From the IMG/VR virus record IMGVR_UViG_3300009171_000001, positions 9,760 through 73,759 of that record: DNA of 64,000 nucleotides. One strand, written 5' to 3'. Both the position numbers and the translations under genes were made by a program. Position 1 is the first letter of the stretch. Every line of letters begins with the position of its first letter. The notes below the pieces were generated by a model that did not search any database, was not told where the DNA came from, and saw only the letters and a list, made by a program, of their open reading frames with translations. Source of the stretch: a virus. Of this stretch, positions 17,499 to 41,130 are shown piece by piece.

Positions 17499-17506
17499 GG
17501 TGTACA

Positions 17507-18613
17507 ATGAATGCTATGGAAATTATGACTAAGGCCAGAACTCACTTGTTGCTTGACCATCCATTTTTTGGATGCTTGGCCATGCGATTAAGTCTGGTTG
17601 AGGACAATCAGTTTGAAACAGCGGGGACAGATGGCAAGGAATTGAGATTCAATTCACAATTCATTCAATCATTACGATTGAATCAAGTGGTTGGATTGTT
17701 TGCTCACGAGGTTATGCACTTGGCTTTGGGGCACAACTGGCGGCAAGGCACACGTGAACATGAACGGTGGAACAACGCTGGCGATTACGCCATCAATTCC
17801 AATCTTGTCCGCACTGGGATTCACCTGCCGGATGGTGCTTTGATTGCTTATCAGTTTGACAAAATGAGTGCAGAAGAAATTTACACTTATCTTCCGTCCA
17901 ATCCAAACCAAAATCAAAGCTCCGGCTCAAGCCAAACGTCTGATCCAGGTGGTTGCGGGGCAGTATTACCCACACCCAATGATTCTCAACTGGATGAGAC
18001 TAAGGCAGAGTGGAAGACAGCAGTGGCTCAAGCCATACAATTTGCTGGCATCGGTAATTTGCCTGCGGATTTGGCTCGCCAATTACAATCGGTGATTGAC
18101 CCATCGTTGCCATGGTATGTATTGCTGCGTGATTTTGTAGAACGCTCAGCGCGCAACGATTTCACTTGGCAAAGGCCAAATGCTCGCTACATCAATCAAG
18201 GCATTGTTCTGCCAGGATTGATTAGTGAAGAGTTGCCTGAAGTGATTGTGGCTGTTGATACCAGTGGCTCAATTAGTCAAGCCCAATTGGATTCTTTTGC
18301 GGCTGAGGCCAGTGCGGTGCTTAGTGCTTACAAAACAACAATCCGTGTGATATATTGCGACAACGAAGTACAAGGCGAGCAAATCTATCAAACAGATGAT
18401 TTGCCCATCCACTTATCACCGAAAGGTGGTGGCGGGACAAAGTTTGACCCTGTGTTCCGCTATGTAAACGAGAATGGATATACACCATCCTGCGTGATAT
18501 ATCTGACGGATTTGTTGGGGCCCACACCCCAATGTGAGCCAGAATGCCCTGTACTTTGGGTAAGTACAAAGCCAGGCAAAATGCCCTTTGGTACAGTGAT
18601 TCAACTGAATTGA
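17507..18613 (+). CDS. Metallopeptidase (HEXXH)-VWA domain protein (DUF2201-like)
   Basis: AHEVMH, DYAIN, VAVDTSGS MIDAS, GGGGT.F.PVF, YLTD. Confidence 0.9.
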   Translation: MNAMEIMTKARTHLLLDHPFFGCLAMRLSLVEDNQFETAGTDGKELRFNSQFIQSLRLNQVVGLFAHEVMHLALGHNWRQGTREHERWNNAGDYAINSNLVRTGIHLPDGALIAYQFDKMSAEEIYTYLPSNPNQNQSSGSSQTSDPGGCGAVLPTPNDSQLDETKAEWKTAVAQAIQFAGIGNLPADLARQLQSVIDPSLPWYVLLRDFVERSARNDFTWQRPNARYINQGIVLPGLISEELPEVIVAVDTSGSISQAQLDSFAAEASAVLSAYKTTIRVIYCDNEVQGEQIYQTDDLPIHLSPKGGGGTKFDPVFRYVNENGYTPSCVIYLTDLLGPTPQCEPECPVLWVSTKPGKMPFGTVIQLN

Positions 18614-25625: not shown

Positions 25626-27011
25626 GTGAAGATACAGCACCAAACATTTGATGAGGAGCGGGTGGTGTTGATAGGCATGATAGTAGATAAAACTGTTTTG
25701 GGTAGAATATCAACCAAATGGCAGCCACCCATGTTTTTATCACCACATGCTAACAAGGTGGGTCAATGGTGTATAGATTATTTTCATCAATATGAAAAAG
25801 CCCCAGGCCGACACATTCAATCCCTATATGAAAGTTGGGCTGTTGATAGTCGAAACAAAGACAGTACAGAAATAATAGGTTCATTTCTTGACAGTCTAAA
25901 CAAACAATATAAAAGGCTGTCCCAAGATAGCAATAGTCAATATGTAGTGGATTTGGCTGCCAAGCATTTTAATCGGGTGAAGTTGAATCAACTGACAGAT
26001 GCTATAAGTGGGGATTTAATTCAAGGTAAGACAGACAAAGCTGTAAGCAGAGCTTTGAATTACCATAAGGTGGAAATGGGTGTGGGTGAGGGGATTAAGG
26101 TTTTTCAAGATAAGGATGTTATATGTGAGGCGTTTGAAGAGAGTCATGAACCATTGATAAAGTACACAGATGGATTGGGTAAGTTTTTTGGGGATACATT
26201 AGAGCGGGATGGATTCATAGCATTTCAAGGCCCAGAAAAACGCGGCAAATCTTTTTGGTTGTTAGATGTGGCATTTCGAGCGGTGATTCAAAAACGCCGT
26301 GTAGCCTTTTTTGAGTGTGGGGATTTAAGCCGCAATCAAATAATGAGACGATTTATGGTACGAGTATCACGCCAACCGCTATATCCTTGCGATGTACGTT
26401 ACCCATTGTCTATCAAACACAAACCCAAACGACCACCAATTATCCGTACAAAACATAAACATTACAAAAAGGGATTGACTTGGCGGGCATCCTATAAAGC
26501 GTGTAGGATGATTACCAAACACCGCAAACTCAAGGATGCTTTACGATTATCCGTTCATTTTAATGATACTTTGAATGTTGAAGGTATTAGGGGGATGTTG
26601 GAGGAGTGGGAGAGGGATGGGTGGATACCGGATGTGATTGTGATAGATTATGCCGATATTCTCAATATGGACCATACGGGTTTGGAGGGGCGGGATAGGA
26701 TAGATTACACGTGGAAACAATTGAGACGGTTGAGCCAGGAAAGACACTGCCTTGTGGTAACAGCCACCCAAACAGCTGCACGTGGATATGATGTATTGAC
26801 ACAAAGCCAAAAACATTTTAGTGAAGACAAGCGTAAAAATGCCCACGTGACTGGGATGGTGGGATTGAATCAGACGGTGAAGGAGAAAGAAAAGGGTATT
26901 ATGAGGCTCAATTGGATTGAGTTGCGTGAAGGGTGGTATAGCGAACGGCAATGTTGTTATGTAGCCACTTGTTTTGAGTTAGCTAATATGGCTGTGAAAA
27001 GTTGTTTCTAA
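25626..27011 (+). CDS. Replicative DnaB-like helicase
   Basis: GPEKRGKS Walker A, VIVIDYADIL, VTATQ, SED.RK. Confidence 0.88.
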   Translation: MKIQHQTFDEERVVLIGMIVDKTVLGRISTKWQPPMFLSPHANKVGQWCIDYFHQYEKAPGRHIQSLYESWAVDSRNKDSTEIIGSFLDSLNKQYKRLSQDSNSQYVVDLAAKHFNRVKLNQLTDAISGDLIQGKTDKAVSRALNYHKVEMGVGEGIKVFQDKDVICEAFEESHEPLIKYTDGLGKFFGDTLERDGFIAFQGPEKRGKSFWLLDVAFRAVIQKRRVAFFECGDLSRNQIMRRFMVRVSRQPLYPCDVRYPLSIKHKPKRPPIIRTKHKHYKKGLTWRASYKACRMITKHRKLKDALRLSVHFNDTLNVEGIRGMLEEWERDGWIPDVIVIDYADILNMDHTGLEGRDRIDYTWKQLRRLSQERHCLVVTATQTAARGYDVLTQSQKHFSEDKRKNAHVTGMVGLNQTVKEKEKGIMRLNWIELREGWYSERQCCYVATCFELANMAVKSCF

Positions 27012-27457: not shown

Positions 27458-28009
27458 ATGGCAAAGGTAATGAAAGTAGAAAAGAGTAAGGCTGTGGCTT
27501 TGTTTGTGGCGATGGGCTTCAAGACTGCCGGAAAGTGGGATGCTGAAAAGCTGACCGAAAAGATTAACCTGATTGAGGATGCCCCAGAAAAGCCGCTGGA
27601 GGATGAGGCTTTGGATGGCCTTTTGGATGAAATCCTGGGGGCAGCGGGGGACATCGTGGTTGTGGACGACGAGGCCGAGGGTGACGAAGAGGAAGAGCCT
27701 GAGGCCGATGATGAGGATGAAAAGCCCAAAAAGGGCAAAAAGGACAAAAAGGCAAAGGCAACCAAAAAGCCTGTGAAGAAGAACCTGAACCGAATCCACG
27801 CCGTCACGGACATTTTGAGAAAGCTGAAGAAGAGTGGTGCTACAGCTGAGGACATCATCAAAGCAGCGGATGATGCCTATGTTGCAGATGGTGGCAACAG
27901 CAATCTGAAAGAAGCCGGATACAGCACTCACAGGGTCATTCAGGTAATGGAACGGCTTGGGATGGTGTCTGTGGAAGATGGTAAAGTCCGTCCGGTCAAT
28001 CCTGTCTAA
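27458..28009 (+). CDS. Acidic/basic low-complexity protein, possibly DNA-binding
   Basis: 183 aa; D/E-rich then K-rich linker; wHTH-like C-terminus. Confidence 0.7.
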   Translation: MAKVMKVEKSKAVALFVAMGFKTAGKWDAEKLTEKINLIEDAPEKPLEDEALDGLLDEILGAAGDIVVVDDEAEGDEEEEPEADDEDEKPKKGKKDKKAKATKKPVKKNLNRIHAVTDILRKLKKSGATAEDIIKAADDAYVADGGNSNLKEAGYSTHRVIQVMERLGMVSVEDGKVRPVNPV

Positions 28010-28026: not shown

Positions 28027-29085
28027 TTGATGAAACGATACCAAAGTGCAATTGGGGTAAGGGGTGATTGTTTATATTGCCCCTTGCCTTTGTCTATTGA
28101 TACCTATTGGAATTGTGAACCTGATTGTTATCATTGTTATAGCCGCCGCCTTAATCGGATATGGGGGATGGATTTGCGGCCTGCTGACCCTGATGCTATC
28201 GCCCACAAATTACATAATGGATTGAAATGCAAAAATCCACGTAGTAGTTTGGCTTGGGCTTTATATCATAAGAAAACCTTGCGGGTGGGAAATCGTACAG
28301 ACCCATATCAACCAGCTGAATTGAAACATCAAGTTACTCATCAGGTATTAAATATCTTGATTGATTTGAAATGGACGTTTGTTATTCAAACGCGATTTAC
28401 AAATAATATGTCTAATGATGAAGAGGCCATACTCAAAGCAAAGGATAAACAACTCATTACTTTGCTGCCCATTATTAGTCCAGGGGGGGAGTGGGATAGG
28501 ACTGTTTTGGAAAAAGGGGCAACACCATCAATTCATAGCCGATTACAAATCATCCGTCGATATATCAAAAAAGGTGTGCCTGTAGGTGTGGGGGGTGAAC
28601 CTTTCATTCCTGGTTTGCATACGCCTAAAATGTTTGAAGATACTTTGAAGTCATTAAAATCAGTAGGGGTAAAAAGTTATAATACATATAATTTGCATTT
28701 CAACGACCATGTAGCCAAACAACTGGTTGGTATTGGATTAGATATTGAAAGGATTTGGCATTATAATCAGGACAAACAATGGCGTCCAATTTTGCATAGG
28801 TTGTGCGAAATGGCTGATAGGCTGGGGATAGTATTGGGTTGCCCGGACTTTGTCAACGTACCGTACAGTTATACAACAAAATCTAACACTTGCTGCGGTA
28901 TATCGGTAACAAACCCCAGCCGATTTAACACAGACACTTGGCGAAGGTTGTTGATGGATGGGAAAAAACCAGGATGGGTGTTGAAAAAGACGTGGGAGGG
29001 GATTGGGAATAAGGAGATGGGATGGAAAATCTTGTTTGGCAAACCGTGTGAATTTTATACGATGAAAGATGCAGGGATTATATGA
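28027..29085 (+). CDS. Radical SAM enzyme (SPL-like)
   Basis: CEPDCYHC motif, TDPYQPAE, C-terminal NTCCG. Confidence 0.88.
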   Translation: MMKRYQSAIGVRGDCLYCPLPLSIDTYWNCEPDCYHCYSRRLNRIWGMDLRPADPDAIAHKLHNGLKCKNPRSSLAWALYHKKTLRVGNRTDPYQPAELKHQVTHQVLNILIDLKWTFVIQTRFTNNMSNDEEAILKAKDKQLITLLPIISPGGEWDRTVLEKGATPSIHSRLQIIRRYIKKGVPVGVGGEPFIPGLHTPKMFEDTLKSLKSVGVKSYNTYNLHFNDHVAKQLVGIGLDIERIWHYNQDKQWRPILHRLCEMADRLGIVLGCPDFVNVPYSYTTKSNTCCGISVTNPSRFNTDTWRRLLMDGKKPGWVLKKTWEGIGNKEMGWKILFGKPCEFYTMKDAGII

Positions 29086-29801
29086 AAAGAAGAAAAGACC
29101 GGATATTACCAAAAGATAAATGGAAATTTGATGATGCTGTTGCTAATTGTTTTGATAATATGTTGGAACGTAGCATACCTCAATATGAAGTAATGAGGAA
29201 GGCGGTTGTTGATATTGCTTGTGAATTTCAATCGGATAATACTTGCATTATGGATTTGGGAACGTCTTTGGGGGGGAGTTTATCTCCTCTGATAGAAAAG
29301 TTTGGAAATAGAAATCATTATGTAGGGATGGAAATGTCTATTCCCATGATTGAAAAAGCGAATCGAAGATTTGAAAAAGAGGTAAAAGAGGGGTATGTAA
29401 TAATAAAAGAACATGATTTAAGAAAAGGGGTGCCCCAATCCCCCACGTGCATTGCTATGTCTATATTGACAATTCAATTTACACCAATAGAATATCGTCC
29501 TCATATCATTAGTTCTGTTTTTGAAACACTAATATCTGGTGGGGTTTTCATTTTGGTAGAGAAGATATTGGGTCAGACAAGTCATATAGATAAGTTGATG
29601 ACCAAATTGTACTATAATATGAAAGGCAAGGCTGGGTATTCTCAAAAACAGATAGAGAGAAAACGATTGAGTTTAGAAGGAGTGTTGGTGCCTGTGACGG
29701 CTAAGTGGAATGAAGAGCTTTTGTGTTGGGCTGGATTCAAAGAGGTGGAATGTTTCTGGCGATGGATGAACTTTGCGGGATGGGTGGGGATAAAAAGATG
29801 A
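29082..29801 (+). CDS. cmoA: CmoA-like carboxy-SAM synthase/SAM-dependent methyltransferase
   Basis: WKFDDAVANCFDNMLERSIPQY, DLGTSLG, LTIQF, LVEK, KRLSLEGVLVP, FWRWMNFAG. Confidence 0.75.
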   Translation: MKRRKDRILPKDKWKFDDAVANCFDNMLERSIPQYEVMRKAVVDIACEFQSDNTCIMDLGTSLGGSLSPLIEKFGNRNHYVGMEMSIPMIEKANRRFEKEVKEGYVIIKEHDLRKGVPQSPTCIAMSILTIQFTPIEYRPHIISSVFETLISGGVFILVEKILGQTSHIDKLMTKLYYNMKGKAGYSQKQIERKRLSLEGVLVPVTAKWNEELLCWAGFKEVECFWRWMNFAGWVGIKR

Positions 29802-30541
29802 AAGATTTATGGATATGTCAAAAATGGAAGATGAAAAATGTGGGGAGCACTTTGTCGGAAATTATCGAAGTGGGAGGAAAGAGGACTGTCTGGCATGAAC
29901 ATAGAATTAAACACCTAAGTGAAAATGTATGGTGTTTATATCAAGCACTTCAAATAGTGGGGGGTGTAAAATCAGTGATAGACCTTTGTGCTGGAATAGG
30001 ATTGTGGGCGAAGGTGATAGAACAGGAAATAAAACCTTTGCGATTGACTTTGATAGATTTGGATTATGCTTGTTGTGAAAGATTGAAAACACAATTTCCA
30101 ACAGCTGATGTTCTCTCAGATAATTATTGGAACATATCTTGTAGAGGTTATGATTTAGTTTGTATGGATGTTACTATTAGCACGGCTCATAGGATATTTG
30201 ATAATAATCCTGATATTCCATTAATGAAAGTGTTGGGGGAAGGAGTTACTTGGATCATAATATCGGATTGTGCTGCCCCTAAATTACACCTCAACAAAAA
30301 ATCTTATGAAAATGTACTTAAAGGTGAAATTGATTCTTATGAAGACTACATAAGATTATATTCAAAAAGACTTTTGAACAAAACAGGAAAATCCATTCAT
30401 ACCGTTTTTCTAAGTGGCGGTTCTAAACGTCCACATTCAAGTTACTTTTTAATCAAAAATGATGCGAGAGATTTTGAGATTAAAAGGGTAGAGAATGTTC
30501 CTGAATCTTCTTTTTATCGGGGGGATTTATTGAATGATTAA
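29798..30541 (+). CDS. Class I SAM-dependent methyltransferase-like protein
   Basis: VIDLCAGIG motif I; LIDLD. Confidence 0.65.
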   Translation: MKDLWICQKWKMKNVGSTLSEIIEVGGKRTVWHEHRIKHLSENVWCLYQALQIVGGVKSVIDLCAGIGLWAKVIEQEIKPLRLTLIDLDYACCERLKTQFPTADVLSDNYWNISCRGYDLVCMDVTISTAHRIFDNNPDIPLMKVLGEGVTWIIISDCAAPKLHLNKKSYENVLKGEIDSYEDYIRLYSKRLLNKTGKSIHTVFLSGGSKRPHSSYFLIKNDARDFEIKRVENVPESSFYRGDLLND

Positions 30542-31385
30542 AATTGATACTCCCGTAGAAAGTCACTATATAAAGGGGAGGGAGATTTGGGTGAAAAGAG
30601 AAGATTTATGCACCCAAATCCCAGGCCCACCTTTTAGCAAATGTCGGGGATTGTATCCTCATATGAAAAGGTTGCGGGATGAAGAGAAAGTACATATAGT
30701 GGGTTATGTTGAAACACCCATATCAATGGCTGGATGGGGTGTGGCTTGGTGTGCTAAGGCTTTGGGAATGACTGCGGTAATATATGAACCCCAATATAAA
30801 CATGGCGCACCAAAAATGTTGATTAAGCATAAACAACATTGGGAAAAGTTTGGAGTGATAATCGAACATATCCCAGCAGGCATGACTTGTATTAATCAAC
30901 ACATAGCCAAAAAACATTTGTTGAAAAAATACGGTGCCAAAACACATTTGTTACCCATAGGGATACCTTCAATAGAAACGGTGGAAGAAACAGCTGCCGA
31001 ATGGCGGAGGACAATATACCAATATGGTAAATTTGAAAATGTTATCGTTCCTGTAGGCAGTGGTACCATTTGTGCAGGTGTATTAAAGGGGATGTTACCT
31101 GAAGATGGGTGTTTGACTGGAGTAATGGTTTATTCTAAAAACATTCCAAAAAAATTCAAATCCATTTGTAATAAAGCGGGCAAACAAAATCTTCCCTTGT
31201 TAGAAAACAATCTTAATTTTAGATTGATTGATCCTGGATGGAGTTATACAGAAATGGCAACCATACAAGCACCATTCCCTTGCCACCGATATTATGATTT
31301 GAAAGGCTGGCAGTGGTTATTAGAAATGTTGCCTACAATGAAAGATAGAGTGTTGTTTTGGAATATAGGCTCAGAAGGTCAATAA
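30534..31385 (+). CDS. PLP-dependent enzyme (fold type II, ACC deaminase/D-cysteine desulfhydrase-like)
   Basis: WVKREDL, FSK.RG, VPVGSGT, YYDLK, LFWNIG. Confidence 0.8.
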   Translation: MIKIDTPVESHYIKGREIWVKREDLCTQIPGPPFSKCRGLYPHMKRLRDEEKVHIVGYVETPISMAGWGVAWCAKALGMTAVIYEPQYKHGAPKMLIKHKQHWEKFGVIIEHIPAGMTCINQHIAKKHLLKKYGAKTHLLPIGIPSIETVEETAAEWRRTIYQYGKFENVIVPVGSGTICAGVLKGMLPEDGCLTGVMVYSKNIPKKFKSICNKAGKQNLPLLENNLNFRLIDPGWSYTEMATIQAPFPCHRYYDLKGWQWLLEMLPTMKDRVLFWNIGSEGQ

Positions 31386-31428
31386 GCAATAATATCTTAT
31401 ACGGTTAAGTTAATAGGATTTTATTTTA

Positions 31429-32856
31429 ATGAATTACTACGAGTTGAGAAAAGCTGTGGCTCAAGTCATCCCGCATAGTCACCGGATTACGGGGGAGAGG
31501 ATGAGAGTACGGGCGGTGAAAGAAAAGGGACGCAAAAGTGGATATGCTGAGTACAAATTGTCTCAACAGGAGTGGGTAAAACAAGAGCGGTTGTTAAATG
31601 TAGATGAAGTGAGTAGTTTTATTGAAGTTAGTTGCAGGGCACAGGCTTGCCCAATGCCATTAAACATCGACATTTGGGATGGATTGATTTGTCCCTACAA
31701 TTGTTGTTATTGTTTTGCTAATAGTTTTAGGGCATCTTTGTACACAGCATTTTTTGATAATAGCAAAACTATGGGTATGCGGCATTGTAACACTGCTAAG
31801 TACAAAAAGGATTTGGACAAACTATTCCTTCAATATCGTGGTAAAAATTCTCATGACATAAACAATCCTGTTGCTAAGGCTATAGCTATAGGAATACCTA
31901 TACGATTTGGCATCCGGTTTGAGGATTTTTTGAAGCAAGAGGAGAAAAGCGGGGTGAGTTTGGAAATGTTGAAATACCTTGCTAAGTGCAAATATCCTTT
32001 GATGGTCAATACCAAGTCTGTATTGATAGGTCATGAAGAATATGTTCATGCATTAAGTCATAACAAAGGCAAAACGGCAGTACATATCACTTTAATAAGT
32101 AGTAACAATGGTTTGTTGAAGGCTTTAGAACCTGGGGCACCATCCTATGAGGATAGAATAGGGGCTATGAAAAATTTGGTGTCTGCTGGGGTGAGGGTAG
32201 TAGCCAGGATTGAACCGTGGATGCCTTTTGTGAATGACGACCCTGACCATACCGAAAAATATATGCAAGATTTGAAAGATATTGGGGTAAAACATTTGAC
32301 CTTTGATACATACTCCTACAGCGCCAACAATCCAGGTATTGCCCAGGCTTTCCGAAATCTCAATATGGATTGGGATAGGATTTTCTCCATGGGTTGTGAA
32401 AGTCAAGGTTTTGGCAGCATCCTGTTAGGTTACTATATGAAATTGTGGCAAGACAAAGGATTTCATTGTTCAACTTTCGATATGGGTAATATGCCCACTA
32501 ATTCTCAATCTATCTGTTGTGAAGTGGGGGATTTGTTTGAAACTACGGGTGGCTTTAATTACGGTTGTACTGTGATGGCTGCCAGATATATCATTGGTAA
32601 AAAAGGTTCATCGGTAAGTTGGGGGGAATTTTGTGCCCATGTAAATAAACATGGTGGATTTTTGTCCAAAGCCTTAAAAGATGAAGTATTATTGTTATGG
32701 GACTTTTTGGGTAAAGATGCTTATAGTCATGGTTGGAGTGCGGGGATGGAAATAGATGGGTGTGATGAAAATGGACATATGGTGTGGAAATATAATTCCG
32801 ATTTAGATTTTCGTCAAGATTTGTTAAAAGGAGTAGGCATTGAGTTACAAAGCTAA
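31429..32856 (+). CDS. Radical SAM enzyme (second; paralogue of 28027)
   Basis: CPYNCCYC motif; LEPGAPS...R; C-terminal SICCE. Confidence 0.88.
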   Translation: MNYYELRKAVAQVIPHSHRITGERMRVRAVKEKGRKSGYAEYKLSQQEWVKQERLLNVDEVSSFIEVSCRAQACPMPLNIDIWDGLICPYNCCYCFANSFRASLYTAFFDNSKTMGMRHCNTAKYKKDLDKLFLQYRGKNSHDINNPVAKAIAIGIPIRFGIRFEDFLKQEEKSGVSLEMLKYLAKCKYPLMVNTKSVLIGHEEYVHALSHNKGKTAVHITLISSNNGLLKALEPGAPSYEDRIGAMKNLVSAGVRVVARIEPWMPFVNDDPDHTEKYMQDLKDIGVKHLTFDTYSYSANNPGIAQAFRNLNMDWDRIFSMGCESQGFGSILLGYYMKLWQDKGFHCSTFDMGNMPTNSQSICCEVGDLFETTGGFNYGCTVMAARYIIGKKGSSVSWGEFCAHVNKHGGFLSKALKDEVLLLWDFLGKDAYSHGWSAGMEIDGCDENGHMVWKYNSDLDFRQDLLKGVGIELQS

Positions 32857-33550
32857 TAAACGCATTGAAGATATATTTGCTCATGCGGTAGCATTACAAC
32901 AAAATGGACGTATGCGCAATACTATATATTGTAGAAAAAATTATATTTATATCTTGAATCAAGATGATACAATTTTGCTACGATTTTGTTTAAGGCTCAG
33001 TGAGGTAGTATTTGCTCATCCAGTATCTTTTTATGCTAATGATTATGATAGCAACAAGTTTTATGAAGAGGATGGAAAAATCCATTTTGTAATTGAAAAT
33101 GAATTTCATCAAAGAATCAAACAATGTGGGACACCTAAGCGAAATCCCTTGCAGGTTCATAAATTATTTCAACAAATAAAACCGTTGATGGAAAATGCTG
33201 TGGATATAGGGGAATCTCTATTAGGATTTCTTGATGAGGATTTGACCCATATAGAATTTTCTGCTTCAAAAGGCAAACTCAAGATTGTCCAACGTAATAT
33301 CTATACAGGTTCAATAATAACCATCCAGGAAAAAACAGGGCAAGAACAAGGATTGGTACAAATATCCCCCCATCTAAAAGATTTTGTCCCAATAGCTATT
33401 CGTACCAAAGATTTTTTAGCCTTGTTTAGTTTTGCCAATATTGTATCCTTTTGTTTTGGTGATCATTATATATGGGTAGAAAATAAAGACCATAAAATAC
33501 CTTTTATGGGTATAATAGGATTATGTAGATATAATGAGTTGCAAGGATGA
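32840..33550 (+). CDS. Hypothetical protein in the modification cluster
   Basis: 236-aa ORF overlapping both neighbours. Confidence 0.6.
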   Translation: MSYKANKRIEDIFAHAVALQQNGRMRNTIYCRKNYIYILNQDDTILLRFCLRLSEVVFAHPVSFYANDYDSNKFYEEDGKIHFVIENEFHQRIKQCGTPKRNPLQVHKLFQQIKPLMENAVDIGESLLGFLDEDLTHIEFSASKGKLKIVQRNIYTGSIITIQEKTGQEQGLVQISPHLKDFVPIAIRTKDFLALFSFANIVSFCFGDHYIWVENKDHKIPFMGIIGLCRYNELQG

Positions 33551-34422
33551 AAGATTTGTTGGGACAACCCATTTCTCTTAAATTGCGTGAGAGGTATGTT
33601 GAACCACCTTTCACAGTTTTATCCACTTACTCTTCCTTTTGGATAAATCGACGGCGACAATGGTTGCGTTTGGGCATTCAAAGTGAATTGGGACGGACAA
33701 GTTCTACATTTAGTGGAGGATTGCCTAATTTCATAACCAAAACCAAAAAATCAAAAAGTTTGAAACAACGTACTTCTATTTTTGATCCAGTTTTGTGTGA
33801 ATTAATATATCAGTGGTTTTGTTTTGAAAATGGAAAAGTGTTGGACCCATTTGCGGGTGGAAGTGTGCGGGGGATTGTAGCGGGATATTTGGGTTATCCC
33901 TATGTTGGGATAGAATTGAGTGAACCCCAAGTAAAAGCTAATGAGAAACAGGCCCATCATATTCTATCATCAAACATAAAAACATATCCACAATGGATAG
34001 TGGGGGATGCTGAAACCGTTTTGCCCACATTAAAAGAAAAAGTATCACTAATTTTTTCCTGTCCACCTTATATGAATTTGGAAAAGTTTAGTAATCATCC
34101 AGAGGATTTGAGTAATATGGATGATGAGCATTTTATTGCTAAATATAACCGGATTATACAATATGCCTGCAAATTGTTAAAACCAAATGGTTTTGCTTGT
34201 TTTGTGGTGGGGGATTTGCGAGATAAAAAAGGATATTTCAAAGATTTCCCCATGATAACTAAGCAGGCTTTTTATGGGTGTGGTTTGAAATTGTACAATG
34301 AAGCTATTTTGTTAAACAGTTTGGGTAGTGCTGCTATACGGGCTAAGTGTCAGTTTGATAGAGGGAGAAAGTTGGTGAAGGTACATCAAACAGTTCTGGT
34401 TTTCAAAAAGGTAAAGGATTGA
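33547..34422 (+). CDS. DNA amino-methyltransferase-like protein
   Basis: SIFDPVLCE, VLDPFAGGSVRG, SCPPY. Confidence 0.85.
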   Translation: MKDLLGQPISLKLRERYVEPPFTVLSTYSSFWINRRRQWLRLGIQSELGRTSSTFSGGLPNFITKTKKSKSLKQRTSIFDPVLCELIYQWFCFENGKVLDPFAGGSVRGIVAGYLGYPYVGIELSEPQVKANEKQAHHILSSNIKTYPQWIVGDAETVLPTLKEKVSLIFSCPPYMNLEKFSNHPEDLSNMDDEHFIAKYNRIIQYACKLLKPNGFACFVVGDLRDKKGYFKDFPMITKQAFYGCGLKLYNEAILLNSLGSAAIRAKCQFDRGRKLVKVHQTVLVFKKVKD

Positions 34423-34518
34423 TTATGGGTGGCAAAAGTCGCAAATCAGGCGGTATTAGTAAAACACTGGTTCAACGTCTATCCCGTGAACATCGACAAA
34501 ATCAAAAGGTGAAAAAAG

Positions 34519-35295
34519 ATGAACGAATATCTACAAGCAGTGGAAAAAGCCGGTCAAAACCCCAACTTTTGGATGAGTGAAGAATACATCCAAAAAGCTA
34601 ATTTGGTTTGGGTATATGAAAATGAACTTTTAGGATATAAAATGAATCCAAAAGATGATGAATGGTTTTTTCCACCTATTGATAAAGATAGACAATTTGA
34701 TTTGAAAAGGAACATTTTCTGCGGATTTGTTTTATCAGATTCAGATTGTGAGGAAGGTTCATTTTTGGATTTTCAATTTTTCTACAATCCCCCAGCATTT
34801 CTATCAATGCAAGGTAGTCATTGGGATGTGTTTCGTAAAAACATTCGCAAAATTCCCAAACGTACCAAAGGTGAATTAATATATAAACCAATTTGTGGAA
34901 AAAGTTATTCTCAAGAAATATCCCAACTGATAATTGAGTGGTCTGACAGAATGGGAGAAGTGCAAGACCATATAGTTTGTATCAAATATGCTTTGAGTGG
35001 ATGCAATCGTTGGGGTTTGTTTTTGGAAAACCAATTGATAGGATTAAATGTTTGGGATGAAAATTTTAAGTATATCAATTTTCGTTATTGTATAGATAAT
35101 GGGATGCCTTTTCTACAAGAATATCTCCGTTATCGTTTTTATCTTCGTATTATGCATATTCAAAAGTGGGTAAATGATGGTGGTGTTTTAGATAATGCTG
35201 GATTAAAACGGTTCAAAGAAAAACTGAACCCTATAACTATAGGAAAAGTTTGTCAATATAAAGGAAAGGATATGATTTATGCAAGTAGTACGTGA
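34519..35295 (+). CDS. DUF2156/GNAT-fold aminoacyl-transferase-like protein
   Basis: QG.HW.VFRKNI and VNDGG.LDN.GL..FK.KLNP resemble the MprF C-terminal/DUF2156 fold. Confidence 0.5.
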   Translation: MNEYLQAVEKAGQNPNFWMSEEYIQKANLVWVYENELLGYKMNPKDDEWFFPPIDKDRQFDLKRNIFCGFVLSDSDCEEGSFLDFQFFYNPPAFLSMQGSHWDVFRKNIRKIPKRTKGELIYKPICGKSYSQEISQLIIEWSDRMGEVQDHIVCIKYALSGCNRWGLFLENQLIGLNVWDENFKYINFRYCIDNGMPFLQEYLRYRFYLRIMHIQKWVNDGGVLDNAGLKRFKEKLNPITIGKVCQYKGKDMIYASST

Positions 35296-36301
35296 ACAAT
35301 TAAACAAAGAATTGAAAGCTGTTATGGCCGGATTATCCCCACAAGAAACAATTGAACAAAGTGATTGTTTTGTTTTTCAAGATGGTAAGGTGATAACATT
35401 TAACGATGAGATTGCTTGTCATTCACCTTGTTGCTTACCCATCACAGGGGCCATAAAAGCTACCAAGTTGTTGGGGATGATAGAACAATGGCCGGAAGAT
35501 AATATCGAATTTGAAGTGGAAAAGGACAAACTCAAATTCCAAGGGAGAAATCGGCATGGTTATTTTGTTATGCAAAAACAAATTACTTTGCCTATTAAGG
35601 ATATTGAAGTGGCGGGTAAATGGAATAAACTGCCTGAAGATTTTCTAACAGCCGTATCTCTAATAGAAAAGAGCGCCAGTCATGATGAAACCAAGTTGCA
35701 ATTTACCTGTTTGCATTTATCCAGCCAATGGATAGAATCCAGTGATGGTTTTCAAGCTGGACGATATTCTATGAAGTTGCCTTTTTGTAAATCCCTTTTA
35801 CTTCATAAAAAAATAGTCAGATGGTTAGGTGAAATAAATGCCAATCAAATGAATGAAACCTTACATTGGATTCATTTTCGCAACAGTGAAGAAAAGGATA
35901 TGATAATCAGTTGTCGCAAACGGGACCAAGGTCAAAATTATCCCAGTGATGCATTGACGGATATATTCAAAACAAAAGGTACACCTATAAAACTACCCAA
36001 AAACTTGAAAAATCTGACAAACCGTCTTAAAGTATTTTTGGATGAGGCGAATGTAATTCAATCATCTTTGATTATTCAATTGAACAAAAACCGCATATAT
36101 ATTACAGGTAGTGGAACGTATGGTGCTCAAACGGAGAGAGCTAAAATTTGTTATGATGGAAAGCCCTTCAAATTTAATATCAATCCTGAATTATTACAGG
36201 AATTTAGTACACAACATGATGAATGTATGATTTCTGACAAAAATATAAAAATACGAAAAGGGAATTATCAATTTGTATCTTGTTTGTGGCTGACTGAATG
36301 A
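35279..36301 (+). CDS. DNA polymerase III beta-like sliding clamp
   Basis: 340 aa; TFNDEI, ESSDGFQ, FNINPELL match clamp-like patterns. Confidence 0.7.
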   Translation: MQVVREQLNKELKAVMAGLSPQETIEQSDCFVFQDGKVITFNDEIACHSPCCLPITGAIKATKLLGMIEQWPEDNIEFEVEKDKLKFQGRNRHGYFVMQKQITLPIKDIEVAGKWNKLPEDFLTAVSLIEKSASHDETKLQFTCLHLSSQWIESSDGFQAGRYSMKLPFCKSLLLHKKIVRWLGEINANQMNETLHWIHFRNSEEKDMIISCRKRDQGQNYPSDALTDIFKTKGTPIKLPKNLKNLTNRLKVFLDEANVIQSSLIIQLNKNRIYITGSGTYGAQTERAKICYDGKPFKFNINPELLQEFSTQHDECMISDKNIKIRKGNYQFVSCLWLTE

Positions 36302-37515
36302 TGCACGGTTTTCTTCTCAATACTAATACAGATAACCGAATAGGTTTGGCTCATAATCCACAATGTGGTAGTTGTGGTTTGGCCCGCAAGTGCAAATCCC
36401 CTAAGATGAAATATACTGGTAAGGGGGAGAGGAAAATACTCATTGTGGGGGAGGCTCCTGGGGTGGAAGAAGATAAAGTCAATGAACAATTTGTGGGTAA
36501 GGCTGGCAAACGATTGAAGCAAGAGTTGAAAAGGCAGGGTGTAGATTTATTTAGGGATTGTTGGAAAACCAACGCCATACGTTGCCGCCCACCAGAAAAC
36601 AAAAAGCCCGATAACAAGCAAATTGCCTATTGTCGGCCAGCTTTGTTTTCCGAAATAGAACAACTCAAGCCTATTTCTATCTTGTTATTTGGTAATGTGG
36701 CGGCTAAGTCTGTGCTTGGTCATTTGTGGGATAATAGTGAAGGTTATGAAATGTCCACTTGGACAGATTGGTTGATACCTAATCGCAAACCCAATAGTTG
36801 GATTAGTGTTCACTATCATCCATCGTATTTAGAGCGACAGGGGGATGGTTTGTTGGATTTATTGTTTCAGCGGCATTTGAAACGGGCGTTGAAAAAGACA
36901 GAACGCCCGTGGGATAAAATCCCTAATTATGAAAATGATATTGATATATTATATACACCCAAAACAATTATCCCTTGCATTCAGGGATTGATAAATTGGG
37001 GGGAACCAATTGCTTTTGATTATGAAACCAATTGTCTCAAACCAGAATATGAGGGGGCAGAAATTGTTAGTTGTTCTATTTGTTGGGGGGAAGATGGGGA
37101 AGATAAGGTAATAGCCTTCCCCTGGATGAAAGAAATCCTAAAAGCAATGGATTTGTTGCTCAAAAGTCCTGTCCCAAAAATAGCCAGCAATATGAAATTT
37201 GAGGAGCGGTGGACAAAATATGTATTTGGACATCCTGTAAAGAATTGGGCGTGGGATACAATGCTGGCTGCCCATACTTTGAATAATAATGGCGGTGTAA
37301 CTGGTTTGAAATTCCAAGCATTTACCCGTTTGGGTCAACCCCCATATGATAAACACATTGAATCTTATTTGAAACCTGCCCGCAAGCAATACTTGAATAG
37401 AATACGAGAAATACCATTGAAGGATTTGCTCTTGTATAATGGGATGGATTCATTATGTGAGTACCTTGTAATGCAAAAACAAAAGAAAATCGTAATGAAA
37501 GGACACAATCCTTGA
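36298..37515 (+). CDS. Uracil-DNA glycosylase (family 4) fused to PolA 3'-5' exonuclease
   Basis: CGSCGL, VGEAPG.EED...FVGKAG, CRPP.N, YHPSY; then FDYET, NMKFE, DTMLA, YNGMD exonuclease motifs. Confidence 0.9.
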   Translation: MMHGFLLNTNTDNRIGLAHNPQCGSCGLARKCKSPKMKYTGKGERKILIVGEAPGVEEDKVNEQFVGKAGKRLKQELKRQGVDLFRDCWKTNAIRCRPPENKKPDNKQIAYCRPALFSEIEQLKPISILLFGNVAAKSVLGHLWDNSEGYEMSTWTDWLIPNRKPNSWISVHYHPSYLERQGDGLLDLLFQRHLKRALKKTERPWDKIPNYENDIDILYTPKTIIPCIQGLINWGEPIAFDYETNCLKPEYEGAEIVSCSICWGEDGEDKVIAFPWMKEILKAMDLLLKSPVPKIASNMKFEERWTKYVFGHPVKNWAWDTMLAAHTLNNNGGVTGLKFQAFTRLGQPPYDKHIESYLKPARKQYLNRIREIPLKDLLLYNGMDSLCEYLVMQKQKKIVMKGHNP

Positions 37516-37841
37516 AGGTATTAAAAGTTCAAGATTGTGAAGTGTTATTAGATGATTATGATTGGTTACGATTATGTCGAATCAAATGGAAAATCCGAAC
37601 ACCCAAAGATGGGGCTAAGTATATTTGTTGTAACAAATGGGTTACTTTACAAGATGGTTGTAGGGCAAAAAAAACTATCTATCTACACCGAGCTATTTCT
37701 TGTCCGCCGTATGGATTAGATTTGCCACCTGATATTGAAGTACATCATAAAAATAGTAATCCCTTGGATAATCAACAATGTAATTTGGAACGGTTAAATC
37801 GAGTTGCTCATGGTAAAATGACACGGAATAATCATCAATGA
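37512..37841 (+). CDS. HNH endonuclease
   Basis: YLHRAI...VHHKNSNPLDNQQCNL. Confidence 0.88.
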   Translation: MKVLKVQDCEVLLDDYDWLRLCRIKWKIRTPKDGAKYICCNKWVTLQDGCRAKKTIYLHRAISCPPYGLDLPPDIEVHHKNSNPLDNQQCNLERLNRVAHGKMTRNNHQ

Positions 37842-39223
37842 TAAAAGCCACCACACAAGATGCTTATAGATTGCTTCATGAAGGCTTATTAGTTATGGCT
37901 GAAATGGAGGCGAACGGAATCTGTGTAGATGTAGATTATATAAAACGGACACAAAGAAAAATAGATGTTCGTATTAAGTATCTTACTGAACAGTTGCAAG
38001 AAGATAAGATATACAGGGTATGGAAAAAGACATTTGGTTGGAAGACGAAACTTGGCAGCCGAGCGCAATTAGCTAATGTATTGTTTGATAAAATGGGAAT
38101 ACGTTCGGAGAGACAAACTAATACACGACAGGCGGCTGATGCAGAGGCTTTAGAGGGATTGAACATACCATTTGTTAAACAATATCTACATATCGAAAAG
38201 TTGAAGAAAGCCCGCAGTACATATCTTGCTAATATCCTGTATGAAACGGTAAATGGATTTATTCATCCCAATTTTAATTTGCATATTGCAAGAACTTTTA
38301 GAGGTTCATCTGACCATCCCAATTTTCAGAATATACCTATGCGGGATGTTCTCATCAAAAAGTTAATAAGACGTAGTTTTATTGCTCGGCCAGGACATTG
38401 CTTGGTTGACTTGGACTTCAAGGGCAGTGAAGTCAACGCAGCCAGTTGGTATCATAAAGACCCAGTGATGCTAAAATATATTGCTACTAATCCAGGCAAG
38501 ATGCATTTTGATGCCGCTAAACAAATCTACAAGTTGCCCAGCAAATTGATGACGCCAGAAATACGATATTGTGCAAAGAATAAGTTTGTATTCCCTCAAT
38601 TTTATGGTGATTGGTGGTTAAGTTGTGCACACAATTTATGGAATGCTATTGATAGGATGAAATTGAAAACCGCTAATGGCATCCCATTGAAAGAATGGCT
38701 TGAAAGAAAGGGCATAGTATGTTTGGGGACAGGTGATACAAAAAATATAAATCCTAAATCTTTTGAAGCCCATTTGAAGGAGGTAGAATATGACTTTTGG
38801 CATAATCGTTTTGCTGTATATCAAGAATGGAAAGAAGAGTGGTGGGAACAATATCAAGAACGTGGGTGGTTTCAAATGTTATCGGGTTTTAGGGTGTCGG
38901 GATATTTGAATCGTAAAGAGGTCATCAATTATCCAGTACAAGGTACAGCATTTCATGCTTTGCTTTGGTGTCTCATTCGTATTAGCCAATTGTTAAAAAA
39001 GTATAATATGAAAACAAAACTGGTTGGGCAAATCCATGATGATGCTGTGAGTGATGTACCGGAAAAGGAGTTAAGCAATTATATAGAAATAGCATTAGAT
39101 GTAATTATGGTACAGTTGAAAAAACATTGGCATTGGATAATCACGCCCATGCAAGTGGAGATTGAGACAACTGAAATAGGTGGTTCGTGGTATGGTAAAA
39201 AGGAATACAAAATTACCAATTAA
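37838..39223 (+). CDS. polA: DNA polymerase family A, polymerase domain
   Basis: RTFRGSS..PNFQNIP, DLDFKGSE, R..AK...F..FYG, NYPVQGTA, QIHD. Confidence 0.93.
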   Translation: MIKATTQDAYRLLHEGLLVMAEMEANGICVDVDYIKRTQRKIDVRIKYLTEQLQEDKIYRVWKKTFGWKTKLGSRAQLANVLFDKMGIRSERQTNTRQAADAEALEGLNIPFVKQYLHIEKLKKARSTYLANILYETVNGFIHPNFNLHIARTFRGSSDHPNFQNIPMRDVLIKKLIRRSFIARPGHCLVDLDFKGSEVNAASWYHKDPVMLKYIATNPGKMHFDAAKQIYKLPSKLMTPEIRYCAKNKFVFPQFYGDWWLSCAHNLWNAIDRMKLKTANGIPLKEWLERKGIVCLGTGDTKNINPKSFEAHLKEVEYDFWHNRFAVYQEWKEEWWEQYQERGWFQMLSGFRVSGYLNRKEVINYPVQGTAFHALLWCLIRISQLLKKYNMKTKLVGQIHDDAVSDVPEKELSNYIEIALDVIMVQLKKHWHWIITPMQVEIETTEIGGSWYGKKEYKITN

Positions 39224-39857
39224 TCAAATCATCTGCGGTGATTGTAGAGAAATCATCAAGGATTGGCCAGATGGATGTATTGACTTAATCCTTACTGACC
39301 CACCGTATGGTATTGATTATGCAAAGATTCAAGGGACAAGGCCCAATGAGAAAAAGAGAAAAGTGTTTGAAGGTGATAAAATTCCAATAGATATGACCTT
39401 TTTGTTTAATCGGCCCGAACCTAAAATCATTTTTGGTGCAAACAACTTTTGGAAACAAATACCTACACGTGGTCGATGGTTATGTTGGGACAAAAGAACA
39501 AAAATAAGTGCTGATAAGACTCTGGGCTCGCCATTTGAATTAGCTTGGATAAATCGAGAACACGGTTATAATAGAATCTATCGTGTGATGCATGGAGGTG
39601 TTATTAATAATGACCAGTATTATGGCGAAAGAAAAAGATGGCATCCAACACAAAAGCCCATCAATTTAATGAGATTGATATTGGAAGATTTTAGCAAACC
39701 CAACGACATAATCCTTGACCCATTTTGTGGTAGTGGTACTACCTGTATAGCCGCCGCCTTAATAGGCCGTCGATACATTGGTATTGATATTGATGAACAG
39801 TATTGTGAAATAAGTAGGAAAAGAATTAAACGAATAACAAGTGGGATGTTAATATGA
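39192..39857 (+). CDS. DNA methyltransferase (N6/N4, beta class)
   Basis: TDPPY, HPTQKP, LDPFCGSGTT. Confidence 0.92.
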   Translation: MVKRNTKLPINQIICGDCREIIKDWPDGCIDLILTDPPYGIDYAKIQGTRPNEKKRKVFEGDKIPIDMTFLFNRPEPKIIFGANNFWKQIPTRGRWLCWDKRTKISADKTLGSPFELAWINREHGYNRIYRVMHGGVINNDQYYGERKRWHPTQKPINLMRLILEDFSKPNDIILDPFCGSGTTCIAAALIGRRYIGIDIDEQYCEISRKRIKRITSGMLI

Positions 39858-40198
39858 GTTGGTGGATTAGTCTAAGAGATTCTCAAGGTGATTATCTGGA
39901 AACAGATACTATTTGTTGCGAAGGTGGTACGCAAGTTGTAGGTGGTACGAGTGAAGCAGTATTGAATGTTACCTACAACTATGGCAAACATTTTTGCTTT
40001 CCAAAACTTCAAGGATTGACAGCCATAGAAGCCAAACCCATTTTATCTGAAGCAATTAAACAACTTAAAGATGACACCGATGAAGATTATTGGAAAGCTA
40101 CGGAAGGCAATGCCAAGCGAGCTATACAAACTCTGTTGGATTTTTGCGAATTTGCTATCCGTACCAACCGGACAGATGCAAAGTTTGTAGTGAACTAA
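39854..40198 (+). CDS. Hypothetical phage protein
   Basis: LNVTYNY...YWKATEGNA pattern. Confidence 0.65.
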   Translation: MSWWISLRDSQGDYLETDTICCEGGTQVVGGTSEAVLNVTYNYGKHFCFPKLQGLTAIEAKPILSEAIKQLKDDTDEDYWKATEGNAKRAIQTLLDFCEFAIRTNRTDAKFVVN

Positions 40199-40212
40199 AA
40201 GGAGATGATGCA

Positions 40213-41130
40213 ATGATGGAATTGTACCGTAAATATCGCCCGACACGTTTGAAGGATGTTTTGGGACAACCTGAAGCTGTAAACATTCTTCGCAAGAAAA
40301 TCAAAAGTGAATCCGTACCCCACGCCATCTTATTTCATGGCCCCCCAGGTACGGGCAAAACCACCTTAGCACGTATAATAGCTAAGCACGTTAAGTGTAG
40401 TGATTATGATTTGCAAGAAAAGAATACTGCCGATTATAGGGGGATTGATAGTATTAGGGAAATCCGCAATAGTGTAAATCAAGCACCTATGAGTGGTGAA
40501 TCCCGCGTATGGATATTAGATGAAGTACATAAGGCTACTAATGATGCCCAAAATGCAATGCTCAAATTATTAGAAGAGCCACCTGACCATGTTTATTTTA
40601 TCTTGTGCACTACTGACCCCCAAAAACTACTTTCAACCATCCTACAGCGGTGTACTGTTATCCGTTTGTTACCCATCCCGTTTGAAGATATTAGGGATAT
40701 AGTAAAGAATGTTTGTCATCAAGAAAATATCAAATTATCGAAAAAGGTTTTTGAGCGGCTGATAGAATATGCGGAAGGTTCTGCCCGTGAAGCCCTACAA
40801 ATCCTGGACAAAATATATCAATTGGAAGATGAACGGGAACAATTAGATGCTATTGAAAAAGCATCTGTCAAAACTCAAGCTATCACTATTGCCAGGATGT
40901 TGTTGAATACAAAAACAAAATGGAAACAAATATCCCCTATTTTGAAAGAATTAGAAAATGAGGATGCTGAACAAATCCGATATATGATATTGGGTTATGG
41001 ACGGGCAGTTTTGTTAAGTAAAGATACCCCACGGGCATTCAGAATGATTGAATCATTCCGTGATAATTTTTATGATAGCAAATTTAGTGGTGTGGTGGCA
41101 GCTTGTTATGAGGTGATTCAAGGTGGATAA
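40213..41130 (+). CDS. Clamp loader, DNA pol III gamma/tau-like
   Basis: LYRKYRP, GPPGTGKTT, LDEVH, AQNAMLKLLEEPP, QRC. Confidence 0.92.
   Translation: MMELYRKYRPTRLKDVLGQPEAVNILRKKIKSESVPHAILFHGPPGTGKTTLARIIAKHVKCSDYDLQEKNTADYRGIDSIREIRNSVNQAPMSGESRVWILDEVHKATNDAQNAMLKLLEEPPDHVYFILCTTDPQKLLSTILQRCTVIRLLPIPFEDIRDIVKNVCHQENIKLSKKVFERLIEYAEGSAREALQILDKIYQLEDEREQLDAIEKASVKTQAITIARMLLNTKTKWKQISPILKELENEDAEQIRYMILGYGRAVLLSKDTPRAFRMIESFRDNFYDSKFSGVVAACYEVIQGG

Follow-up and report, generated by a model that had tools for sequence, protein, structure and literature searches.

The locus considered here is a block of genes at positions 28027-35295 of a 64,000-nucleotide stretch of phage DNA (the window), which corresponds to bases 9760-73759 of the complete 73,759-bp virus record IMGVR_UViG_3300009171_000001, a record with direct terminal repeats; all coordinates given below are those of the window. 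A sequence-only reading of this DNA had described a coupled block of eight genes between the helicase and the clamp and polymerase genes, and had proposed that it encodes a new DNA hypermodification pathway. All eight long open reading frames (ORFs) are indeed found on the + strand at the coordinates first given, with stop/start overlaps of 4-17 bases or gaps of 43 and 96 bases at their junctions, and the block is embedded in a replisome operon with a DnaB-like helicase on its left and clamp and PolA genes on its right. The gene list itself required two corrections: a ninth gene, encoding a peptide of 51 amino acids (aa), had been missed, and the gene for the methyltransferase-fold protein MT2 starts at 29798. 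From left to right, the block encodes a radical S-adenosylmethionine (SAM) protein (rSAM1), a CmoA homolog, MT2, a pyridoxal phosphate (PLP) enzyme, a larger radical SAM protein (rSAM2), a protein with the fold of the sliding clamp PCNA, an N6/N4-type DNA methyltransferase, the peptide and a DUF2156-like protein (U258). On the basis of homology, predicted fold and gene neighbourhood, the block is read here, with moderate confidence, as a clamp-linked, tRNA-dependent, radical-SAM system for the post-replicative hypermodification of DNA bases, with tailoring by carboxy-SAM (Cx-SAM).

The distribution of these genes among related viruses separates a conserved core from genes that come and go. Eighty viral loci were fetched with an alignment of rSAM2 and the other genes were sought in them by tblastn; the alignment was required, as a scan of viral contigs with the single rSAM2 sequence returned nothing. 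The PCNA-like protein is present in 75 of the 80 loci, rSAM1 in 73, the DUF2156-like protein in 69, the helicase in 63 and the clamp in 59; the PLP enzyme is present in 41, the DNA methylase in 8, a weak MT2-like match in 4 and CmoA in none. The core, shared by about 80 viral loci, consists of rSAM1, rSAM2, the PCNA-like protein, the peptide and the DUF2156-like protein, and in the related loci this module always lies between the helicase and the clamp/PolA genes. The idea that the eight genes form one pathway is therefore not sustained: the core recurs without CmoA, only half of the loci have the PLP enzyme, CmoA and MT2 are seen together with the core in the present phage only, and the N6/N4 methylase is an insertion found in few relatives.

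More specifically, rSAM1 and rSAM2 are directly adjacent in some loci, and elsewhere a variable slot lies between them. This slot may hold one or more of the following: a PLP enzyme resembling gp52 of Pseudomonas phage M6, a methyltransferase-like protein of a family designated v1 (with or without an aldo/keto reductase), an FAD oxidoreductase, an Amidoligase_2 protein, a DUF362 protein, an N6/N4 methylase or a HINT/endonuclease element; in the present phage it holds CmoA, MT2 and the PLP enzyme. The enzyme classes found in the slot (PLP decarboxylase, FAD oxidoreductase, amidoligase, aldo/keto reductase and methyltransferase folds) are those that tailor known hypermodified bases. A scan of metagenomes added three loci only, the closest of which (L135, rSAM2 77% identical) shares the order of the PLP, PCNA-like, methylase and DUF2156-like genes; its contig ends inside the PLP gene, short of the place where CmoA and MT2 would lie. 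Protein searches with rSAM1, rSAM2 and the DUF2156-like protein gave no match among 50,697 deposited phage records, and full-text literature searches for the core components returned no paper on the core.

The SPL-like protein rSAM1 (28027-29085, + strand) carries the CxxxCxxC motif, with partial matches to the PA0069 and Rv2578c families (E 3e-18); in its family the motif cysteines are C30/C34/C37, and C18, C272, C289 and C290 are also invariant. The second protein, rSAM2 (31429-32856, + strand), is a larger paralog of rSAM1 (family-profile hhalign probability 98.6%, E 7e-16) with invariant C88/C92/C95 and additionally C74, C323, C347, C363 and C364. Both proteins share a pattern of extra cysteines, of which four are invariant, comprising an upstream cysteine in CP(L/M)P, one further on and a CC pair; this pattern suggests that a second Fe-S cluster is probable in each. 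Against the PA0069 and Rv2578c models, which have cut-offs of 360 and 430 bits, rSAM1 scores 66 and 50 bits and rSAM2 39 and 42 bits, so by these scores the two proteins are branches related to those families and not members of them. The PF04055 model falls below its cut-off on rSAM2 itself, yet is recorded on rSAM2 homologs, and the rSAM2 profile found no solved relative in the PDB. The rSAM1 family aligns with M6 gp53 over 247 columns (hhalign probability 95.8%, E 6.6e-9), and the rSAM2 family is more distant from it (probability 15%). By this comparison rSAM1 is a remote but significant homolog of gp53, at a distance from which function is not inferable.

The module is common: homologs of rSAM2 number 524 in a large protein collection, many of them on contigs of 60-78 kb. 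Some bear inteins: one (P0017) is a 604-aa protein with PT-HINT and intein-splicing domains, another locus (L112, 8662-9900) has an ORF with HINT and DUF559 endonuclease domains just upstream of rSAM2, and a third (L131:10001-11845) is grouped with the intein/HINT-associated loci. Named homologs from the rSAM2 and DUF2156-like searches derive from metagenome-assembled genomes labelled Methanosarcinales, Pacearchaeota, Synergistales and Deltaproteobacteria. These sources hint at anoxic habitats, which would fit oxygen-sensitive radical SAM enzymes.

The nearest named models being those of the SPL-related PA0069 and Rv2578c families, and homologs of the radical SAM proteins being annotated as 'DNA repair photolyase' in their sources, the core could be thought of as a repair system in which clamp-tethered SPL-like lyases remove thymine photoproducts or other lesions and the remaining genes are passengers. 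The presence of a clamp-fold partner would also suit such a role. Repair is nonetheless highly improbable, as it leaves unexplained the strictly co-conserved aminoacyl-tRNA transferase fold and peptide, the occurrence of two paralogous radical SAM proteins, and a biosynthetic slot that holds a gp52-type decarboxylase, reductases and an amidoligase.

The fold-type II PLP enzyme (30534-31385, + strand) is an optional tailoring gene that matches PALP and phrog_7093 (E 3e-46). It is 39% identical to M6 gp52 over the full length (E 1e-54), and its Lys36 is aligned to Lys36 of gp52. Phage M6, a Yuavirus, makes 5-(2-aminoethyl)deoxyuridine by a pathway in which gp58 is a dUMP hydroxymethylase and gp54 a 5-hydroxymethyldeoxyuridine (5-hmdU) DNA kinase (Lee et al., NAR 2021, PMC8989533). 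In the same pathway gp51 is the glycine:DNA transferase aGPT-Pplase2, gp53 is a radical SAM isomerase of glycinylthymine in DNA that makes the substrate of gp52, and gp52 is the PLP enzyme that decarboxylates C-alpha-glycinylthymine in DNA, with Lys36 as the proposed Schiff-base residue (PMC8989533). The present module resembles that of M6 in its gp52-type enzyme with the same lysine, in rSAM1 as a remote gp53 homolog with a similar extra-cysteine pattern, in its location near replication genes, in the recombination of tailoring enzymes across relatives, and in the gene order of four related loci, where the PLP gene directly precedes rSAM1 as gp52 precedes gp53 in M6. It differs in possessing a second radical SAM protein, a DUF2156-fold transferase, a PCNA-fold protein and a conserved peptide, and in that the PLP enzyme is optional.

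A further difference is that the hydroxymethylase, the kinase and the aGPT-Pplase of M6 are absent from the complete genome and from eight related records that are at least 90% complete. At BLAST-level sensitivity, tblastn with M6 gp51 and gp54 returned nothing below E 0.5 from the genome and nothing from the 80 related loci, and gp58 likewise had no match in the genome. A thymidylate-synthase-family gene occurs in 2 of 22 large related virus records, none of them among the eight that are at least 90% complete. The complete genome also has no match to PF00303, PF02511, Tet_JBP (PF12851), TGT or QueC. Thus, the earlier observation that the window contains no hydroxymethylpyrimidine or 7-deazaguanine genes extends to the whole 73,759-bp genome, from which CmoX, discussed below, is likewise absent. 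A QueE-type 7-deazaguanine chemistry for the radical SAM proteins was considered and rejected, since TGT and QueC are absent. A published metagenome survey of thymidine hypermodification was anchored on the 5-hmdU kinase and would therefore have missed the module.

One product of the block, left unassigned in the sequence-only reading, is a clamp-fold protein and not an enzyme. The ORF at 32840-33550 (+ strand), a core gene without any sequence match, encodes a 236-aa protein whose predicted structure (predicted local distance difference test score, pLDDT, 90.6) has a two-domain PCNA fold: the top PDB matches of the model are all PCNA chains (E 2.5e-10, TM 0.5-0.62) and its matches in a viral library are sliding clamps. 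Single-sequence PDB searches with this ORF and with the DUF2156-like one had returned nothing usable. A predicted complex of rSAM2 with the PCNA-like protein scored 0.41, the best control scoring 0.00; in calibration the mark was reached by 58 of 80 solved complexes and by 2 of 110 mismatched pairs, and values of 0.60 or below were seen for only 7 of the 80 and for both mismatches. The runs agreed in at least 60% of contacts, with a partner pLDDT of at least 78. These predictions lend weak support to an association of rSAM2 with the PCNA-like protein.

The ninth gene (34425-34580, + strand), also part of the core, encodes the 51-aa basic peptide, whose sequence opens with MGGKSRKSGG; the 3' end of the gene runs into the start of the DUF2156-like gene. 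Of 83 related loci, 70 have a peptide-like ORF of 37-79 aa, and 58 different sequences are represented among them. The head, MGGKSRK, has six invariant residues after the methionine and a further 12 that are nearly so; the tail is variable and basic, often with LF(D/E)- or LLDE-like motifs, which may be clamp-docking motifs of a kind that would suit an adaptor.

The last core gene (34519-35295, + strand) encodes U258, which itself has no Pfam match. Its predicted structure (pLDDT 93.8) has a tandem-GNAT DUF2156 fold, bearing out the earlier DUF2156-like call, and matches 2hqy with a Z score of 21.0 and a root-mean-square deviation of 3.5 over 244 of 258 residues (Foldseek E 3e-10). Further matches of the model are to MprF/aminoacyl-phosphatidylglycerol synthases (Z 13-15), FemX (Z 12.5) and aminoacyl-tRNA-dependent peptide synthases. 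In the wider family, PF09924 is recorded on 11 of the 120 listed members and the family profile matches 2hqy at E 0.0035. U258 is thus a putative aminoacyl-tRNA-dependent transferase, an assignment made from its modelled structure.

Two known systems bear on how such a transferase might act on a nucleobase. In Elongator, the radical SAM and GNAT (KAT) domains of Elp3 place a carboxymethyl group on C5 of tRNA U34. The present core resembles Elp3 in pairing a radical SAM enzyme with a GNAT-fold protein that would carry an activated acyl group and, as proposed, in having a nucleobase as target, a functional analogy only; it differs in that Elp3 unites both domains in one polypeptide, draws on acetyl-CoA and modifies tRNA. 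Mom of phage Mu is a GNAT that takes glycine from Gly-tRNA(Gly) and attaches it to adenine N6 in double-stranded DNA (Silva et al., Nat Commun 2026, PMC13219725). It belongs to the same GNAT superfamily as U258 and sets a precedent for a charged-tRNA donor in DNA hypermodification, so that a tRNA-dependent first step on DNA is credible. In contrast to the tandem-GNAT fold of U258, with its two radical SAM proteins, clamp fold and peptide, Mom is a single-domain protein that works alone, and no sequence relation between the two was seen.

The peptide might alternatively be the substrate and not a helper. In a pathway resembling those of ribosomally synthesised and post-translationally modified peptides (RiPPs), or one built on a scaffold, U258 would add an amino acid to the MGGKSRK head, at its N-terminus or a lysine; the radical SAM proteins, the PLP enzyme and MT2 with Cx-SAM would then tailor the peptide, and the product, perhaps ring-docked, would act on the replisome or on host defence. 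The peptide gene adjoins the transferase gene in the 70 of 83 loci that have it, and its product has an invariant head with a variable tail; in addition, the Fem, MprF and peptide-synthase relatives of the U258 fold aminoacylate peptide or lipid amines, and peptide natural-product clusters typically combine radical SAM enzymes with interchangeable tailoring genes. However, the only parts with characterised homologs (those of gp52 and gp53) are kin to enzymes that act on DNA, and the radical SAM proteins fall in an SPL-like branch and not among the peptide maturases that bear SPASM or RRE domains. No RRE domain or SPASM-type radical SAM protein was matched by Pfam or NCBIfam models on any protein of the block, although remote forms are possible. 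The fixed position within a replication operon, the clamp-fold protein in the module and tail motifs that may suit an adaptor likewise speak against this reading, and a peptide substrate is considered unlikely.

The optional genes of the slot include the one that was first recognised as CmoA-like, an identification that the alignments uphold. The CmoA homolog (29082-29801, + strand), a putative carboxy-SAM synthase, matches TIGR00740 (138.3 bits) and phrog_4752 (E 1e-67), and its residues 13-238 align with residues 31-256 of the full E. coli CmoA chain in 4GEK (E 1e-23) as well as with YecO (1IM8). Its R196 aligns with chain residue 213 of 4GEK, which is native R199, so the equivalent of Arg199 is kept; Arg199 of E. 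coli CmoA is presumably the carboxylate/prephenate site, a role reportedly described by Kim et al. in 2013. The closest homologs, at 42-47% identity, are uncharacterised proteins of jumbo Erwinia phages and an Alcaligenes phage, and a DNA-level search of deposited phages gave a sole match for the block, of 108 bases in CmoA. Judged by these alignments, the protein is a genuine member of the CmoA family from a divergent branch. Fifty-two viral loci contain a homolog of it, none of them with any other gene of the block, and CmoA was accordingly rejected as the anchor of the system. Conversely, besides its absence from the 80 related loci, CmoA has no real match in the 22 large related virus records; by sequence comparison across these two sets, CmoA with MT2 is an add-on seen only in the present phage.

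MT2 (29798-30541, + strand) is an orphan protein with a class I SAM-methyltransferase fold, whose gene start forms an ATGA overlap with the CmoA stop; the start is placed at 29798 because close homologs are 247-254 aa long. Its family comprises 617 representatives and shows weak likeness only to KsgA, TrmR and Trm5. Neither Atlas features, nor profiles of 16 and 37 sequences run against PDB and Pfam, nor a profile search of 1.8 billion proteins gave a name beyond class I methyltransferase fold. MT2 is weakly related to the v1 methyltransferase-like family, which fills the slot in 14 relatives. At residues about 205-215 (about 30410-30445) it has an insertion with a conserved RPHS, present in three close homologs and missing from v1, and this insertion is a candidate carboxylate-binding feature. 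MT2 is the candidate Cx-SAM-dependent carboxymethyltransferase. An MT2 homolog of 73% identity (P0122) and a U258 homolog (P0148) seem to share one 17,351-bp Logan contig.

A comparison with Synechococcus phage S-B43 is instructive in this regard. In that phage CmoA feeds Cx-SAM to CmoX, a homolog of C5-cytosine methyltransferases, to give 5-carboxymethylcytosine (Yang et al., Nat Commun 2025, PMC12783734), and CmoY amidates the CmoX product to 5-glycylcarboxymethylcytosine (PMC12783734). The present phage is similar in that its CmoA adjoins a methyltransferase-fold gene amid DNA-metabolism genes, with the same presumed logic of Cx-SAM made in situ and a carboxymethyl handle. CmoX is a PF00145 protein marked by an SPPC motif and the Arg350 equivalent, and CmoY belongs to the asparagine-synthetase-like ligase family PF00733; neither family has a match at E <= 1 in the complete genome. 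In contrast, a PF00145 gene is found in all five of the closest CmoA-bearing virus records, and lies next to CmoA in the three for which positions were worked out. Thus, the present genome differs from S-B43 in lacking both CmoX and CmoY and in having an orphan Rossmann fold as the partner of CmoA, and this CmoA-MT2 cassette without CmoX or CmoY is what is new in the present phage.

The core being without CmoA in all relatives examined, CmoA and MT2 might serve an end apart from it, whether on host tRNA (a cmo5U-type wobble modification), as a SAM drain, or by providing Cx-SAM against SAM-dependent defences. Cellular CmoA does serve tRNA (PMC12783734), and the deposited phage homologs are annotated as tRNA methyltransferases. 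Against this stand the lack of a CmoB homolog, the lack of a Methyltransf_9 match on MT2, and the insertion of the pair exactly into the slot between rSAM1 and the PLP gene with codon overlaps on both sides. MT2 is, moreover, distantly related to the v1 family that occupies the same slot in relatives, and the sole phage CmoA studied experimentally feeds DNA modification. A separate role for the pair is consequently held to be quite improbable.

The remaining gene of the block encodes an N6/N4-type DNA methyltransferase (33547-34422, + strand; PF01555 E 1e-10, phrog_12517 E 1e-87) with motif I followed by motif IV (CPPY). In the eight of 80 loci that have it, the methylase is found elsewhere in the locus, with the same position only in the closest relative, L135. 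It is, from this distribution, probably an independent insertion of an ordinary DNA methylase. As a user of Cx-SAM it is disfavoured, being an insertion between core genes that the nearest relative alone shares and being accompanied by a second such methylase in the genome.

The favoured reading of the locus as a hypermodification system would involve the following steps. U258 would take an amino acid from a charged tRNA, and the radical SAM pair would join it to a DNA base, or rearrange the residue there, by radical chemistry comparable to that of gp53 or Elp3, with the PCNA-like ring and the peptide keeping the machinery on newly made DNA. In the present phage and about half of its relatives, the PLP enzyme would then decarboxylate the appended amino acid to an amine. 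CmoA would convert SAM and prephenate to carboxy-SAM, from which the translationally coupled MT2 would move the carboxymethyl group to the side chain (for example, to its amine) or to the base.

A DNA hypermodification pathway, as first proposed, remains the best-supported account of the block, its PLP enzyme being a full-length homolog of the DNA-acting gp52, and several points weigh against it. Homology, predicted fold and gene neighbourhood make DNA the putative substrate, and the conserved peptide fits a peptide-modifying (RiPP-like) system equally well. Aminoacyl-tRNA transferases of the DUF2156 fold act on lipids, peptides and natural products and are not known to act on DNA. The radical SAM proteins are only remotely akin to gp53 and fall far below the PA0069/Rv2578c cut-offs. 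The CmoA homolog lies under its NCBIfam equivalog cut-offs (138.3 against 193.3 bits for TIGR00740; 84 against 285 for NF011995) and is only about 29% identical to the CmoA of Synechococcus phages S-B05 and S-CRM01, which stand in here for the assayed S-B43 enzyme on the assumption of a common type. MT2 has no feature diagnostic of a Cx-SAM user. Finally, an aminoacyl group joined via its carboxyl has no free carboxylate to decarboxylate, and the order of steps is not obvious; this could be circumvented if a radical SAM enzyme reattaches the residue via carbon in the manner of gp53, or if the transferase is not simply acylating.

A bolder form of the hypermodification reading would need no prior modification of the base. 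The tRNA-activated amino acid would be carried by U258, possibly on the head of the peptide, the radical SAM enzymes on the PCNA-like ring would couple it by a carbon-carbon bond to an unmodified base of the duplex, and in the present phage decarboxylation and carboxymethylation with phage-made Cx-SAM would follow. This bolder reading is unlikely. If true, it would amount to Elp3-like logic on DNA without a hydroxymethyl or phosphate handle. The side chain would then be of the cmnm type, reached in a way that has no kinship with MnmEG or M6 gp51, and Cx-SAM would have a second natural role in DNA modification, this time with an enzyme outside the C5-methyltransferases.

The surroundings of the block consist largely of replication genes. 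To its left lie genes for an SNF2-type helicase, a primase, a replication initiator and the DnaB-like replicative helicase (25626-27011, + strand; a weak match to TIGR03600), which is outside the module and is syntenic in 63 of the 80 loci. To its right are the replicative clamp (35279-36301, + strand; phrog_947 E 1e-16; syntenic in 59 of the 80), a split family-A polymerase (UDG-exo/PolA, 36298-39223), a second DNA methylase, a clamp loader, SSB, a recombinase and nucleases. The polymerase is divided into a part with UDG-like and 3'-5' exonuclease character (36298-37515) and a polymerase part (37838-39223), separated by a 109-aa ORF of no assigned nature (37512-37841). The gene for the second DNA methyltransferase (39180-39857; phrog_67 E 2e-48) begins before the polymerase gene ends, and the phage has two ordinary-looking N6/N4 methylases besides the module.

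Immediately before rSAM1, a gene at 27458-28009 (+ strand) encodes a 183-aa protein with no family match and, in its middle, a strongly acidic stretch followed by a lysine-rich one. In 19-29 related loci the gene directly before rSAM1 encodes a homolog of this protein, and a second acidic family (v0) takes this place in 20 others, so that one or the other occupies it in most of the related loci; the protein may belong to the module. Further to the left, the region 16512-18613 encodes an AAA-type ATPase (phrog_1297, with weak clamp-loader likeness) followed by a 372-aa protein of the phrog_1314 'HNH endonuclease' family. Together with the clamp loader at 40090-41130, this ATPase could provide two loading systems for two clamp-fold proteins. 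The GC skew switches sign at about 12-14 kb and about 50 kb, matching the change of gene strand from - (structural genes) to + (replication genes) and back, and no tRNA gene was found in the phage genome.

The finding is thus interpreted as a post-replicative hypermodification of phage DNA whose front end is of no known type and in which Cx-SAM occurs in a new setting, the modification itself being moderately probable. Known amino-acid-type hypermodifications of DNA start from a 5-hydroxymethyl-pyrimidine made before replication, from Cx-SAM with a C5-methyltransferase, or from Mom alone. The module has none of the known starters and does have two of the finishing enzymes of M6, which suggests that its first reaction on DNA is a new one. 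The present phage is a candidate source of a second family of Cx-SAM-dependent carboxymethyltransferases acting on nucleic acid (or peptide), and the module enzymes could serve as tools for site-directed functionalisation of DNA. As the only member seen with CmoA, the phage also represents a natural experiment on the swapping of tailoring cassettes. A modification of this kind would be relevant to how phage DNA resists restriction and CRISPR nucleases, and, since none of the 50,697 deposited phage records contains the module, modified phage DNA of an entire class may so far have escaped sampling.

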